NCBI GenBank assembly: GCA_039738635.1 | Contig: JBCLLN010000002.1 | Location: 106-64,105, forward strand | Reading direction: 5' to 3' | DNA: 64,000 nt | Source: Candidatus Saccharimonadia bacterium | GTDB lineage: Bacteria; Patescibacteriota; Saccharimonadia; CAILAD01; BJGX01 | Shown: in pieces, positions 57,537 to 63,469 of the stretch | Position numbering within the stretch: the stretch's first letter is position 1 | How the letters are laid out: each line of letters begins with the position of its first letter | Notes under the pieces: generated by a model | What the model was told of the DNA's origin: nothing | What the model saw: only the letters and a program-made list of their open reading frames with translations | Database searches by the model: none | Translations under genes and position numbers: made by a program

Positions 57537-58627
57537 TAATCAATTTCCATAGTTCCAGGCAAATCCGCGTTTAGGTTACCGTCACAATATGATGCACCAT
57601 CACTACATTCCCTACCTGTATACCCGTGCCATGCAGGACCCGCGCCTCCCATGGCTAAATTCATGTGGATACTGTGCTCATAGCCAAGTGCTGTTAACTC
57701 CTCTGTTGTAGTTGCTGTATGCTCGCGAACAAGCACTCCATCTATAAACCACTGCAATTTGTTAGCGGTCCAGTTAAATCCGTAAGTGTGCCAATTATTA
57801 GTGCCCCCAGCTACAAGTGGGTTGGGTGGCTTGATATTAAGCGGACAAGTAGAAGACGGCGGATTGTTCACGCAGTGTCCTCTGGCCCCGATATTACCGC
57901 CAGTTTTATGAAAGTTACTTTCAACTTTGTCGGGCCAAGCACCGAGTTGCTCAAATATGTCAAACTCACCGTAAGCTGGCCAACTAGGGCTCGAACCGTC
58001 ACCTGCGCCAACCAGCCAGTAGGCTCCCCAATACAAATTTCCCAGTGGTAATTTAACTCGTGCCTCCGTATAGCCATGCCGATATTTGTACTTAAGATCT
58101 CCGCCCTGTTTCCTTGTGGTTACCATACCGGATGTAAAATAATAAGTATTGTTACCGGTATCAGGGTTTAAGCTTCCACAGCTGACAGTTTGGCGCTTGC
58201 CAACCATCTTGAGTGTTCCGCCGGAAACAGTAGTATTAGCAGCCATATAACACTGATCTTCGTTATTACCACCACCATAGTTACTATTATTTTGAACATT
58301 CCACCTGGCAGTACTTACGGCTGAACCATCAAAATTTTCATCAAATTTATTCTGCCAAACAGCTCCGCCAGTAACTATTGAGGGAGGCTGGCCTGATGGT
58401 GGAGTTACCTCTGCCCCAAACGCTATGGCTTTGCCGCCAGAGGCATTAGCATCATCTATTATAATAGCTGGCGATTGGATGTTAGAAGCTGTACTTTCTG
58501 GCTCTATACTAAAAGATGGGGTGGCGGCTCTGCTAATGAATAGAATGGTGGCACCTATTAGAGTGAAGATTGCTATAAATATAACAAAGCCATGTTTGGA
58601 TTGGGCAAAGCCCTTAATTTTCTTCAT
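57515..58627 (-). CDS. Secreted GH16 family glycoside hydrolase (laminarinase-like) with the shared N-terminal module; start set at MKKIKGF
   Basis: WQNKFDENFDGS...NNEDQCY and the catalytic EFDIFE motif. Signal peptide plus ATPSFSIEPESTASNIQSPAIIIDDANASGGKAIAFG. Confidence 0.8.
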   Translation of the reverse strand: MKKIKGFAQSKHGFVIFIAIFTLIGATILFISRAATPSFSIEPESTASNIQSPAIIIDDANASGGKAIAFGAEVTPPSGQPPSIVTGGAVWQNKFDENFDGSAVSTARWNVQNNSNYGGGNNEDQCYMAANTTVSGGTLKMVGKRQTVSCGSLNPDTGNNTYYFTSGMVTTRKQGGDLKYKYRHGYTEARVKLPLGNLYWGAYWLVGAGDGSSPSWPAYGEFDIFEQLGAWPDKVESNFHKTGGNIGARGHCVNNPPSSTCPLNIKPPNPLVAGGTNNWHTYGFNWTANKLQWFIDGVLVREHTATTTEELTALGYEHSIHMNLAMGGAGPAWHGYTGRECSDGASYCDGNLNADLPGTMEIDYVKVWQP

Positions 58628-58754
58628 AATTTTGTTCTTTTTCACCTTAATCACAACTATACTCTCATAAAACACTAAGCACAACCAGCATTGGTTATGG
58701 GCTATTGTTGAGTATGGTAAGCCCGTCTATAGTAGATTTCCTACCTAAAAACAA
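58425..58754 (-). repeat. 5' cassette copy 1 (promoter + start + signal peptide + module coding)
   Basis: Near-identical to 61630..61956 and highly similar to 60159..60468 and 63178..63469. It contains TTGTGC (58684-58679) -17- TATAGT (58661-58656) on the minus strand. Confidence 0.85.
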
Positions 58755-58789
58755 CCCCCATAGCTTACGCCGCTAGCCTAAACAAAAGT

Positions 58790-58900
58790 TCAGACAAGGT
58801 GTTCGCAGAAAAGGGAGCTTGATACTCCGACCAAAGCAAAAGCTAATACAGACAGTGCAATACTTCGTTGGTTTTTTGTTTTGTCTTTAAAAATAGTCAT
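58790..58900 (-). pseudogene. Orphan 36-codon ORF resembling a lone signal peptide (MTIFKDKTKNQRSIALSVLAFALVGVSSSLFCEHLV)
   Basis: Hand translation. It has a basic n-region and a hydrophobic core, then a stop. It is too short for the ORF track. Confidence 0.35.
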
Positions 58901-59005
58901 TTTATTATCAACACCATTCTTACCAAATATTATCGTTAATTATAATGCCTAGTTTTTATTAAGGCAATTGTTAAACAAATTATTTTGAGAAAGTGGCTAA
59001 TTGTT

Positions 59006-60848: not shown

Positions 60849-61832
60849 CTAGCGGCAGGGCTTGCGACCACCATCCAGGTTAAGCGGCATAAGTAAGGAA
60901 TTGAAGTTCTGGGTGTTCATAGTAGGACAGAATTTGCTTTGCTGCACGCTGTACTCGATTTGAAAGACGGCTTTGTTGTTATCGATGAAGTACGTCTTGT
61001 AATCACGGCACTCATCGTATTGGTTGCACTGTTCGTTAACGGCAAAGTCGAAATCCTGCCACAAGCTTGGAATCTGGTCAACATCGTTCTTAAGGGCCGC
61101 CGATAAGCCACGATTATGTGCTTGGGTGGCCAGATATTTGTTGTAAGTAATCTGCTCGGTAGCCGTTATATCAAATCCACTATCATTGGAGTAACCGTCG
61201 ACATTGTCGAACTCAACGGCGTCAAATCCTTTGCTCTTACACATATCCATACGTTTTTGCATAATCGGTCCAAGTATAGAAATCTGCCTAACATCGAGCC
61301 AGCGTTCTCCCGGCCAACCGTCAAGATTACTGCCCTTGACAGGATCTGGAAAGGATCCGGCATCGGAGCGCCAGTCTTCCCAACTACCGGCAGAGAGGTA
61401 GCAAATGACTTTTTTGCCCATGCCATGTAGCGCAGTAACGGTACTGGCGGGGTTGTCAAAGCCGTCAATGGAATAGACTAGCGGGTCGGGGGCAGGATTA
61501 CCTAGGTAATTTGTGACACCTGTACCCATATCAGACGCACTGGCTGTATTGAGCGGGCGTGCCAACAGCCACATAAAAGGAGAGTTGAGGGCGGGTTGCC
61601 AGCGACCAGAGGAAGGGGTGTTAAATTGAATGGCTTTGCCACCAGAGGCATTAGCATCGTCTATTATAGTAGCTGGCGATTGGATGTTAGAAGCTGTACT
61701 TTCTGGCTCTATGCTAAAAGATGGGCTGGCCGCTCTGCTTATGAATAGAATGGTGATACTTATTAGAGTGAAGATTGCTATAAATATAACAAGGTTATGT
61801 TTGGATTGGGCAAAGCCCTTAATTTTCTTCAT
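60849..61832 (-). CDS. Secreted GH114 family protein (endo-alpha-1,4-polygalactosaminidase-like) with the shared N-terminal module; start set at MKKIKGF
   Basis: VICYLSAGSWEDWRSD, GERWLDVR, GFDAVEFDNVDGY and LSAALKND are typical of the GH114/TM1410-like family. Confidence 0.8.
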   Translation of the reverse strand: MKKIKGFAQSKHNLVIFIAIFTLISITILFISRAASPSFSIEPESTASNIQSPATIIDDANASGGKAIQFNTPSSGRWQPALNSPFMWLLARPLNTASASDMGTGVTNYLGNPAPDPLVYSIDGFDNPASTVTALHGMGKKVICYLSAGSWEDWRSDAGSFPDPVKGSNLDGWPGERWLDVRQISILGPIMQKRMDMCKSKGFDAVEFDNVDGYSNDSGFDITATEQITYNKYLATQAHNRGLSAALKNDVDQIPSLWQDFDFAVNEQCNQYDECRDYKTYFIDNNKAVFQIEYSVQQSKFCPTMNTQNFNSLLMPLNLDGGRKPCR

Positions 61833-61956
61833 AATTTTGTTCTTTTTCACCTTAATCACAACTATACTCTCATAAAACACTAAGCACAACCAGCATGGTT
61901 ATGGGCTATTGTTGAGTATGGTAAGCTCGTCTATAGTAGCTTTCCTACCTAAAAAC
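61630..61956 (-). repeat. 5' cassette copy 3
   Basis: See 58425..58754. The promoter elements are TTGTGC (61889-61884) and TATAGT (61866-61861). Confidence 0.85.
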
Positions 61957-62294
61957 ATTAAATTGAAACTATTCCTTGTCACGGCTAATTTATAGTTTTA
62001 GTATAAGGTTCGACCTTGAGAGGTGTATTTTATTGTAATTTATTTTGCATTGGCTAATTCGTGTTCAATAAGGACTAGAGAGTCTTGGTGGTCTTGATAA
62101 TCCTCAAGAAAAGCTAGGTAGCTCTCTCCCTCGAATAGATCCAGAATTTTCTGAGGTTGAAGCCAAGCCGGCGAAGGTTTACCTAAGTATTGTGCCAAGC
62201 TCGAATAATGATAGCTGTTAGAGGGCAGGCTCTAGCAGTAAATAAGAAATAGAAACTATAATTAGCGTCAGCTATTTTACGGTCTCCTGTTTGT

Positions 62295-63431
62295 TTAGTT
62301 TTTGGTAAATACTTCTACCGAATCTATCGAGAAGGTAACTGGATTAAAGTTGACAGTATTATCGGCGGCGGCATGCCACTGTGTTTGACCGGCTGCAACC
62401 GGTTTAATAACCTGAGTATTTATCTTAAGGTACCACTGCTGGTTCATGATAGTATCGAATACCGCCTGCGTAAGACCAAAGTCGACCGCACTATCCTTCG
62501 TAATACTGCCATCGGGGGAGCTACTACGGTTGCTGGTGCGCACCACCACCCCGTCAAGCCTGTACGTCACGCCGGTGCTGTCCCAGTCTACCTCCCAAAC
62601 ATGGTCGGTGGTGGTCAGGTCCGATGGGGCATCTTCGTAATGCTGGACTTTTTTAGTAACATTATTGGCGCACGTCATGTGTGTTGTTGCTGTGGTGCGA
62701 TTTGTAGTTGGCGTGTCTTGTGAGTTGTAGTACCACTCCAGGATGTCGATCTCACCGTAGTTGGTGGTACACCAGCTACTGGCGTTACGTATCCACAACG
62801 CAGGCCAAAGACCTTTTTGAGCAGTTGGTAACTTAGCTTTAATGAGCATTTTGCCACTTCTCCAATTGGGTATGGAGTTGATGCCCCCTGCGCTATACTT
62901 GGTGGTGAGTCCAGCTGCACAGGGGATAACTGAGGTATTGGCATCGCTAAGTGCTTCGGTGCTGGTGCTTGTTACGCAGTGCCTGCGCGTCAGCAGCTCG
63001 GCGCGACCACTAGCCACCGTTACGTTGCCGAGCTCGTACTTTGCCTGGTGATGGGCCTGGGTGCCGGTGAATTTGCTCCATTTTGTACTGTCAAAAGTAT
63101 TAAAACAATCCACAAAGACTGAGGTATATCCCACAATTGCGCTACTACAACCAGATGAAACTTCATCACCAAATTTAATGGCTCTGCCATCGCTGGCGGT
63201 AGTGTCATTTATAGACGTGGCTGGGGTTTGAATTTGGCCGTTTTCTGGCTCTATGCTAAAAGATGGGGTAGCGGCTCTGCTTACGAATAGAATGGTGATA
63301 CTTATTAGAGTGAAGATTGCTATAAATATAACAAAGCCATGCTTGGATTTGGCAAGGCCTTTAATTTTCTTTATTATTTTGTTCTTTTTCACCTTAATCA
63401 CAACTATACTCTCATAAAATACTAAACACAA
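62295..63431 (-). CDS. Secreted GH16-like glycoside hydrolase with the shared N-terminal module; start codon uncertain
   Basis: GLWPALWIRN and the catalytic EIDILE motif. The cassette ATG is ATA here (63372-63374). The only in-frame alternatives are GTG/TTG codons inside the promoter region. Confidence 0.7.
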   Translation of the reverse strand: MCLVFYESIVVIKVKKNKIIKKIKGLAKSKHGFVIFIAIFTLISITILFVSRAATPSFSIEPENGQIQTPATSINDTTASDGRAIKFGDEVSSGCSSAIVGYTSVFVDCFNTFDSTKWSKFTGTQAHHQAKYELGNVTVASGRAELLTRRHCVTSTSTEALSDANTSVIPCAAGLTTKYSAGGINSIPNWRSGKMLIKAKLPTAQKGLWPALWIRNASSWCTTNYGEIDILEWYYNSQDTPTTNRTTATTHMTCANNVTKKVQHYEDAPSDLTTTDHVWEVDWDSTGVTYRLDGVVVRTSNRSSSPDGSITKDSAVDFGLTQAVFDTIMNQQWYLKINTQVIKPVAAGQTQWHAAADNTVNFNPVTFSIDSVEVFTKN

Positions 63432-63469
63432 CCAGCATGATATGGGCTATTATTGAGTATGGTAAGCTC
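63178..63469 (-). repeat. 5' cassette copy 4
   Basis: See 58425..58754. The promoter elements are TTGTGT (63431-63426) and TATAGT (63408-63403). Confidence 0.85.

Follow-up and report, generated by a model that had tools for sequence, protein, structure and literature searches.

Four adjacent genes of a Saccharibacteria (TM7) genome, which code for unrelated secreted polysaccharide hydrolases, have one common front end consisting of upstream DNA, an export signal and a short N-terminal module. The genes are located in a 64,000-nucleotide (nt) stretch of contig JBCLLN010000002.1 from Candidatus Saccharimonadia bacterium (assembly GCA_039738635.1), hereafter the window, and are called B (GH16), C (GH5), D (GH114) and E (GH16) after their Pfam assignments; a GH16-like gene, A, carries part of the front end. 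The repeat is likely the product of non-allelic homologous recombination between the front ends, i.e., gene conversion, unequal crossing-over or both. Two classes of tract would have been exchanged, one of at least ~85 nt of upstream DNA plus the signal-peptide codons, common to B, C, D and E, and another comprising the module, common to A, B and D. The tracts would meet in a 37-nt core (RAATPSFSIEPES), the longest stretch kept in every copy, and would end after an AIxFG motif, where the homology of the unrelated catalytic domains stops. Pairing could take place at exact stretches of 44-100 nt and at the universal 37-nt core, and the outcome would be that four enzymes are transcribed, translated and exported via one control and leader sequence.

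The region between positions 53223 and 63536 contains, in this order, gene A, a cupredoxin gene, a Big_7/fn3 gene, and genes B, C, D and E. The repeat takes up ~300-330 nt at the 5′ end of each of the four minus-strand genes B to E and is composed of ~85-110 nt of upstream DNA, a basic N-terminus, a membrane helix and a module of 35 amino acids (aa), SFSIEPE...ASGGxAIxFG. All copies are direct repeats (Table 1), and three of the five members of the repeat family have a 62-nt upstream extension. Gene A, which is found directly after the cupredoxin gene in an operon position, has neither signal peptide nor upstream DNA in common with the array copies; its partial copy is the coding half that a preliminary description of this DNA had placed near 54290..54375. 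The same description had taken a set of antisense open reading frames (ORFs; MALPPEALASS...) for a by-product of the repeat, and they are indeed its reverse strand. It had also assigned the four genes to unrelated families. This is correct for most of the protein parts that follow the module, but two of the four genes are both GH16, and the GH16 bodies are distant kin (24% aa identity between B and E, and 22% between A and B).

Each copy was compared with the whole window by BLAST. Copies B and D were 95% identical over 329 nt, B and C 84% over 316 nt, C and D 85% over 323 nt, C and E 82% over 319 nt, B and E 92% over 228 nt, and A and B 91% over 130 nt. Therefore, the near-identity over ~300 nt that was originally claimed is true of B and D, and of the 5′ ~210 nt (upstream DNA and signal peptide) of all four copies, which are 89-93% identical, but not of the module half of C and E, which is only 53-65% identical to the other copies. 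When identity was profiled in 30-nt blocks, the four copies were 80-100% identical from ~80-85 nt upstream of the GTG start codon common to all of them to approximately +130 nt. Past this point B and D remained 97% identical, while the pairs that include C or E fell to 43-77%, and after the module the bodies were unrelated or shared at most 24% aa identity. Maximum chi-square tests located breakpoints between +129 and +151 nt after the GTG, i.e., in codons 43-50 (TPSFSIEPE), within the RAATPSFSIEPE core. Differences amounted to 7-11% on the left and 35-47% on the right of the breakpoint, and in each pair that includes C or E the permutation test gave p<=0.001.

The two halves of the cassette also differ in the age that their silent sites indicate. 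Silent (pS) and replacement (pN) differences were obtained as Nei-Gojobori counts. In the N-terminus and helix of all four copies pS was 0.04-0.19 and pN was 0.05-0.11. In the module, the pairs with C or E had a pS of 0.47-0.62 and a pN of 0.20-0.25, and pS within the group A, B and D was 0.24-0.34. The module half is near-identical only in A, B and D and old in C and E. Copies C and E have a further ~27 nt in common past the module (AIKFGDEVS), and the similarity of A and B extends to PPSG, so that the homology boundary, previously set right after AIxFG, is found there only in B and D. The sites within the cassette support incompatible groupings. The partition {B,D / C,E} is seen at TTGTGC/T and in the module, and conflicts with the partition {B,E / C,D} of a 4-nt cluster, GGCTT/AACCT (HGF/HNL). 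Moreover, a 100-nt upstream stretch of D is an exact match to B, and a 91-nt stretch of its helix an exact match to C. These conflicting partitions and mixed identities require recombination inside the cassette. The exact stretches common to the copies, of 44-100 nt, exceed the minimum usually given for RecA-dependent recombination (~25-30 nt), in agreement with the earlier proposal that the cassettes serve as recombination substrates.

A comparison with orthologous genes provided a second line of evidence. Gene D and its GH114 orthologue P0002, from locus L068, share 75% aa and 72% nt identity in the catalytic part. Identity in the leader is lower (16% aa in the N-terminus, 27% in the helix and 50% in the module; 48-50% nt), and the upstream DNA is not alignable. 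Within the window, the D leader is 95% identical in nt sequence to the leader of the unrelated gene B. A leader that is the least alike part between genomes and the most alike within a genome is a signature of concerted evolution. Together with the homogenised silent sites, the significant breakpoints and the conflicting partitions, this contrast supports the concerted evolution or gene conversion that the preliminary description had suggested.

Front ends could also stay alike without recombination if purifying selection acted on a signal at the regulatory, RNA or peptide level, and the motifs RAATPSFSxEPE and ASGG are kept at the protein level in hundreds of proteins. However, pN and pS are about equal in the signal-peptide half, orthologues are least alike in their leaders, and the cassettes differ in sequence between genomes. 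The cassette had no match in Rfam at the gathering threshold or at E<=1, and in a consensus RNA fold 0 of the 30 predicted pairs showed a compensatory change. As a control, 61 metagenome loci with the module were collected and all available loci were scanned with the module profile. At six of the loci that have two neighbouring strong module genes, the leaders are unlike at the DNA level, with no blastn match or one of 72-76% over at most 109 nt. The orthologue contrast, the six-locus control and the Rfam and covariation results indicate that the similarity of the leaders is not due to constraint, an explanation that is largely refuted and that we consider very improbable.

It had also been proposed that the cassette captures new catalytic domains, i.e., that a founder front end was copied and fused de novo to each newly acquired enzyme. 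Several observations are in line with this pathway. The genes have non-coding upstream DNA in common, which is hard to obtain by conversion alone; the 5′ end points of the homology vary among the copies; the nearest genome lacks the variable region in which the array is found; and, among 118 of the best matches of a profile search with the module, the module precedes at least 35 Pfam families, which implies many fusions in evolution. Nonetheless, GH114 proteins of other genomes already have their own diverged helix and module at the equivalent place (e.g., TKAATPSVSLEAESGSLTQPATKISDSGASSGQAVQFG), and module proteins of the GH16 and GH5 families are also found elsewhere, so that these genes had no need to acquire a leader by capture. 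The GH114 case in particular indicates that the leader in the array was overwritten rather than newly attached. In addition, a single capture per gene would not give old modules in C and E (pS of 0.5-0.6) next to young signal-peptide halves, and the conflicting partitions inside the cassette need recombination in any case. We therefore regard capture as an unlikely origin of the repeat, and that part of the preliminary description was not upheld.

Homologous recombination between front ends as the preferred reading gained further weight from other genomes. The assembly that also holds P0002 (GCA_039738715.1) includes a locus, L074, with four tandem same-strand genes that have a common cassette. 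They code for beta-helix proteins of 820 aa and 719 aa, a 443-aa GH5 and a 383-aa protein of no assigned family. The homology extends over ~310-410 nt (83-97% by blastn; 72-96% in an ungapped window of 300 nt), from the non-coding DNA 5′ of the first ATG through the module end, and the leader sequence (MTKAKKIRVMRTMKDKRKVIAFVVVFALVGVVALVISRAATPS...) is unlike that of the window. The cassettes of the two beta-helix paralogues are 96% identical, and the repeat segments detected between their bodies number only four (56-300 nt, 72-94% identity). In a 150-kb contig of the Joint Genome Institute (JGI), L075, three tandem genes are found, of which the first (no assigned family) and the third (GH16) are 100% identical over 176 nt spanning helix and module; the middle gene is 69% identical. 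Both loci are independent arrays with their own homogenised leaders. The profile matches include further pairs of proteins with N-termini 70-83% identical and unrelated bodies. Other searches were negative. No cassette or module copy was found in 67 nusA-anchored Saccharibacteria loci, and no cassette repeats in the contigs of four other module-bearing GH114 genes. When species-representative genomes were scanned for degenerate patterns of the six leaders, none of the 97 pattern matches was confirmed, and no exact copy of a 24-nt core pattern was present in the JGI metagenome contigs. The exact proteins of the window were absent from the contig index. Collections of phages and plasmids contained no match to the cassette, which is therefore not a known mobile element. 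At L074, a tRNA-Thr gene (3051-3126) lies just 5′ of the first cassette, and a 118-nt repeat (5717-5834 and 8113-8230, 94% identity) is found upstream of two later ones; by eye, the latter resembles the 3′ half of a tRNA on the opposite strand, with no call by ARAGORN.

Repeats of this kind can be collapsed or chimerically joined when a metagenome-assembled genome (MAG) is built from short reads. The source of the window, an NCBI contig of 65,935 nt, is apparently part of an assembly from an uncultured organism, and its relatives are all MAGs. However, every copy has private substitutions and indels, the longest exact common stretch (100 nt) is shorter than an ordinary read, and the architecture recurs in two more assemblies, one from NCBI and one from JGI. 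An assembly artefact is thus a very poor candidate for the origin of the repeat.

Several points weigh against recombination between front ends. It is read from assembled sequences alone, and no event was directly observed. Four to six copies were available, and the 500-nt alignments depend in part on where MAFFT places gaps, which limits the statistical power. A tract can be converted only if homology flanks it on either side, which does not account for the way in which unrelated genes first came to have their non-coding upstream DNA in common. The homology begins near 58753 in copy B, ~9 nt later in C and ~28 nt later in E, and these three differing 5′ end points may point to old duplications or to events that were one-sided or illegitimate. 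As for the proposed common control, the -35-like hexamer of the candidate promoter described below matches the consensus at only three of six positions, and the threshold of a promoter scan was not reached.

The anatomy of the front end, whose N-terminal layout is the usual one in this lineage, was examined in the four complete copies. The arrangement TTGTG(C/T)-17 nt-TATAGT, already pointed out in the preliminary description, is present in 4/4 cassettes (58684-58656 in copy B) and is plausibly a promoter. The GTG at 58645 in copy B is the only start codon 3′ of the -10-like hexamer that is common to the four copies, and it is our candidate for the translation start. If the promoter assignment is correct, the GTG is 10 nt past the -10 hexamer and the leader of the transcript must be very short. 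An ATG located 18 nt past the GTG is present in B and D, is displaced by 3 nt in C, and reads ATA in E. The gene calls at NCBI differ from the common GTG. Gene D (P0001, MIKVKKNK...) is started at a GTG at 61859, 9 nt upstream, and gene C (P0122, 450 aa) at an ATG. A TTG-initiated extension, MCLVFYESIVVIKV, is plausibly non-coding; a coding role is not favoured because the NCBI gene calls start elsewhere, although both variable sites in it are third codon positions of the TTG frame. In copy B, codons 1-19 are basic and codons 20-38 form a hydrophobic helix that ends in S-R-A-A-T-P, a probable signal-peptidase site to judge from its sequence. Codons 44-77 are the module (SFSIEPESTASNIQSPAIIIDDANASGGKAIAFG). 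It is followed in most copies by a short stretch rich in Ser, Thr, Pro and Gly (in D only TPSSG), and then by the catalytic domain. An AlphaFold model of the gene D product had a mean predicted local distance difference test score (pLDDT) of 90, with a helix at residues 18-37, a confident GH114 barrel, and three short strands in the module (44-46, 60-64 and 72-76) at a pLDDT of 57-82. The common upstream DNA also includes a hairpin, CATAACCA-ATGC-TGGTTGTG, followed by a T-rich run (58699-58680, 60427-60408 and 61903-61885), which overlaps the -35-like hexamer, is weakened in D and E, and could be an operator, an attenuator or nothing. The idea that the hairpin CATAACCAATGCTGGTTGTG with its T-rich run in B, C and D acts as attenuator or operator was abandoned, since the hairpin is degraded in D and E and coincides in part with the putative -35 hexamer.

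Table 1. Coordinates of the cassettes and other features in the window (positions in nt)
Feature	Position	Strand	Direct-repeat copy	Repeat-family member	Remarks
Cassette B	58415..58753	-	58425-58753	58425-58691	Before GH16 gene B (57515-58645); module end 58416; SRAATP core from 58531
Cassette B signals	-35-like TTGTGC 58684-58679; -10-like TATAGT 58661-58656; GTG 58645; ATG 58627	-			
Cassette C	60149..60467	-	60159-60467	60153-60419	Before GH5 gene C (59006-60373); 5′ half recent, module half old with 2-codon deletion
Cassette C signals	-35-like 60412-60407; -10-like 60389-60384; GTG 60373	-			
Cassette D	61620..61957	-	61630-61957	61630-61896	Before GH114 gene D (60849-61850); 95% identity to cassette B
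Cassette D signals	-35-like 61889-61884; -10-like 61866-61861; GTG 61850	-			
Cassette E	63168..63469	-	63153/63171-63469	63172-63438	Before second GH16, gene E (62295-63392); 5′ half recent, module half old
Cassette E signals	-35-like 63431-63426; -10-like 63408-63403; GTG 63392	-			No ATG at the B/D position
Module-only copy in gene A	54245..54376	-	54246-54375 (partial)	54255-54521	Gene A 53381-54487, GH16-like; 89-91% nt identity to B, SRAATP core through PPSG
Module in gene F	33117..33245	+			Sixth module carrier; beta-helix gene F 33012-35300, 762 aa
Core AGAGCCGCCACCCCATCTTTTAGTATAGAGCCAGAAAGT (SRAATPSFSIEPES)	58495..58531	-			Stretch most widely common to all six copies; candidate breakpoint site; core start in other copies 60259, 61736, 63278, about 54361, 33135
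GH16 remnant	60598..60635	-			In the D-C spacer; AYGEFDIFE catalytic motif; 97% identity to gene B 57951-57988
107-nt unit x2, 178-nt period	57252..57536	-			Tandem duplication or deletion scar

The N-terminal module is old and occurs widely. When 1.84 billion cluster representatives were searched with a profile built from the six modules of the window, 436 proteins matched at E<=0.001, nearly all of them at residues ~30-85, with a median start at residue 34; the module almost always comes right after the membrane helix. Among the families following the module in the 118 proteins mentioned above, Beta_helix was the most frequent (16 proteins), followed by GH16 (9), Metallophos (5), alginate lyase (4), GH5, GH26 and polysaccharide lyases (3 each), and GH114, apiosidase, ricin lectin and GDSL lipase (2 each). 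The consensus is S-x-A-A-T-P-x-x-S-x-E-P-E-x-G-T-x-x-x-P-A-x-x-V-x-D-x-T-A-S-G-G-x-A-V-x-F. The module alone had no Pfam match at E<=10, and no NCBIfam model covered the leader or the module, the few weak matches of genes B and C being in their catalytic parts. Word-index searches gave no candidate with the 85-aa leader and nothing significant with an alignment of 84 module sequences; both queries are too short for the method. The module profile also matched a 4,206-aa protein in part, at 12 places, but this protein was discarded since its repetitive motif is unrelated. The E-x-E...ASGG pattern presumably resembles the first strands of carbohydrate-binding modules (CBM) of the CBM6/35 type. 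Membership in this group was rejected because there was no Pfam or NCBIfam match and because the module has ~35 aa and three short strands rather than a beta-sandwich of ~120 aa. Module genes are common in JGI metagenome contigs L077-L137, which are of soil or rhizosphere origin by contig names only; the relatives of the window are from freshwater.

Our best guess is that the module forms a membrane-proximal stalk, or else a retention segment or pro-segment that would remain as the N-terminus of the mature protein once SRA|AT has been cleaved. A more far-reaching proposal would be that the helix and the ASGG module are an undescribed, lineage-wide tag, in Saccharibacteria and relatives, for the export or surface retention of extracellular enzymes, and that the front end is an exchangeable adaptor, renewed by RAATPSFSIEPE-anchored recombination, whose homogenisation is under selection. 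The enzymes may act on host or biofilm polysaccharides, recombination at RAATPSFSIEPE would perhaps be homology-facilitated, with an illegitimate upstream end, and incoming or neighbouring enzyme genes would gain one common expression and export control. This proposal is speculative and, taken as a whole, rather doubtful.

A sixth module carrier, gene F, is located on the plus strand of the window and was not part of the preliminary description. Its product is a right-handed beta-helix, NosD-like protein with helix and module at the N-terminus as in the array genes. Only a 37-nt core (33135-33171, RAATPSFSVEPES) matches the array at the DNA level, with 92-95% identity, and 11 of its 13 third codon positions are the same as in copy B, which suggests micro-conversion or a strong codon preference. 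Remnants between the genes had also been reported; besides the GH16 fragment in the D-C spacer, the only clear one, there is the 107-nt unit that occurs twice. Each unit contains the final codons of a GH16-type gene, a promoter-like TTGACA-16-TAATAT, an AGGAG, and the start of the 751-aa Big_7/fn3 gene, an arrangement with the look of a scar left by recombination or by the deletion of a gene pair. The two units jointly form a short chimeric ORF (MHKLRTTVKNFIKQPVTMVIALTLLVTGLGCKGMATIMT...).

The location of the array was compared with the nearest genome, L001, which has a NusA 93% identical to that of the window and flanking DNA about 91-92% identical. Synteny extends from 40734 to 53223 in the window and ends just 5′ of rnhB. 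Upstream of rnhB, L001 (1-8700) has gatB, dnaE and rplS, and the window has the hydrolase region of ~10 kb there instead. The array (53223..63536) is therefore in a variable region and absent at the syntenic position of L001. As rplS and dnaE lie outside the visible window, a rearrangement of larger extent is likely. By its GC content, the array is not compositionally foreign. The cupredoxin gene (54502-54993) lies immediately 5′ of the module hydrolase gene A, near the Big_7/fn3 gene (55015-57270), and the same trio recurs in an unrelated contig (L073, 1080-5527); the three genes may be a conserved functional trio. A 51-nt element with a hairpin, GTTACTTTT-N9-AAAAGTAAC, is found in the window at 63486-63536 and 1510-1560 (94% identity, opposite orientation), with a third copy in the dnaE-rplS spacer of L001 (7750-7800). 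In addition, a non-coding stretch of ~450 nt (1476-1922) is 84% identical to L001 7392-7834. Neither the element nor the stretch had an Rfam or tRNA/tmRNA match. The window's NusA (50781-52094, minus strand) has a Lys/Pro/Ser/Asp-rich C-terminal tail of ~90 residues, which is not covered in distant homologues, where the match ends near query residues 338-346.

Very small, host-dependent genomes thus appear to use intragenomic recombination to hold a battery of unrelated extracellular enzymes to uniform signals for control and export, and homogenised front ends recur in three arrays of three genomes. Such arrays mislead gene callers, with four different start codons in play and spurious antisense ORFs arising from the repeat, and they are fragile points for short-read assembly and binning. 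The most promising lead is the widespread N-terminal module without a family model, a candidate pro-sequence, or a candidate element for sorting or retention, in a phylum about whose secretion little is known. If one of these roles is correct, the module could be used as it stands to tag exported proteins that are expressed in genetically tractable Saccharibacteria. A literature search found no paper that links Saccharibacteria with such arrays, which is weak evidence of their novelty.

The exchange of gene parts at conserved stretches within tandem clusters is best compared with the lpl cluster of Staphylococcus aureus, in which a conserved intragenic stretch is the site of homologous recombination (Tsuru & Kobayashi 2008, PMC2568036). 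The moving unit of lpl comprises intergenic DNA and the 5′ part of the next gene, and the flanks of the conserved stretch have incongruent histories (PMC2568036). Like lpl, the array consists of same-strand tandem genes in a variable region with a conserved stretch inside the ORFs (PMC2568036). However, the lpl genes are full-length paralogues, whereas the GH16, GH5 and GH114 bodies of the array are unalignable or at most 24% identical in aa sequence, and the homogenised unit is promoter-proximal DNA plus an export signal.

The vsp genes of Mycoplasma bovis switch by DNA inversion. They have a conserved 70-bp upstream sequence and a 31-aa signal peptide, with the remainder of the genes differing (PMC3365025). 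The array is similar to vsp, and to vpma of M. agalactiae, in that an upstream sequence and the signal-peptide codons are common to all genes of the cluster. This likeness to the vsp arrangement of ~70 bp plus signal peptide before divergent bodies (PMC3365025) raises the alternative that site-specific recombination moves one active front end among the genes. However, the array copies are all direct repeats, with no inverted repeats in 52000-64000, and every gene keeps a complete front end. No recombinase was detected by Pfam among the array ORFs, the only ones scanned, and the window ends at 64000. Unlike vsp, which codes for repetitive lipobox lipoprotein antigens next to a site-specific recombinase, the array codes for enzymes rather than repetitive surface antigens, its leaders end in ...LFISRAATPSF with no Cys, and they also carry the undescribed module. 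Programmed switching is, in consequence, hardly credible here.

Two other systems have features in common with the array as we interpret it, i.e., as front ends homogenised by homologous recombination. In Helicobacter pylori, near-identical 5′ (and 3′) segments of babA/babB-type paralogues are exchanged by RecA-dependent conversion, which gives chimeras and swapped expression signals; those genes are homologous adhesins at dispersed loci, whereas the genes described here are tandem unrelated hydrolases. The mycobacterial PE domain, an export or targeting domain, is a short conserved N-terminal unit before many differing C-terminal enzymes or domains, but it has no sequence kinship with the module, and export in our case presumably follows the Sec pathway, as the hydrophobic helix and the A-x-A site suggest. 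The array thus works like lpl and vsp and is a member of neither.

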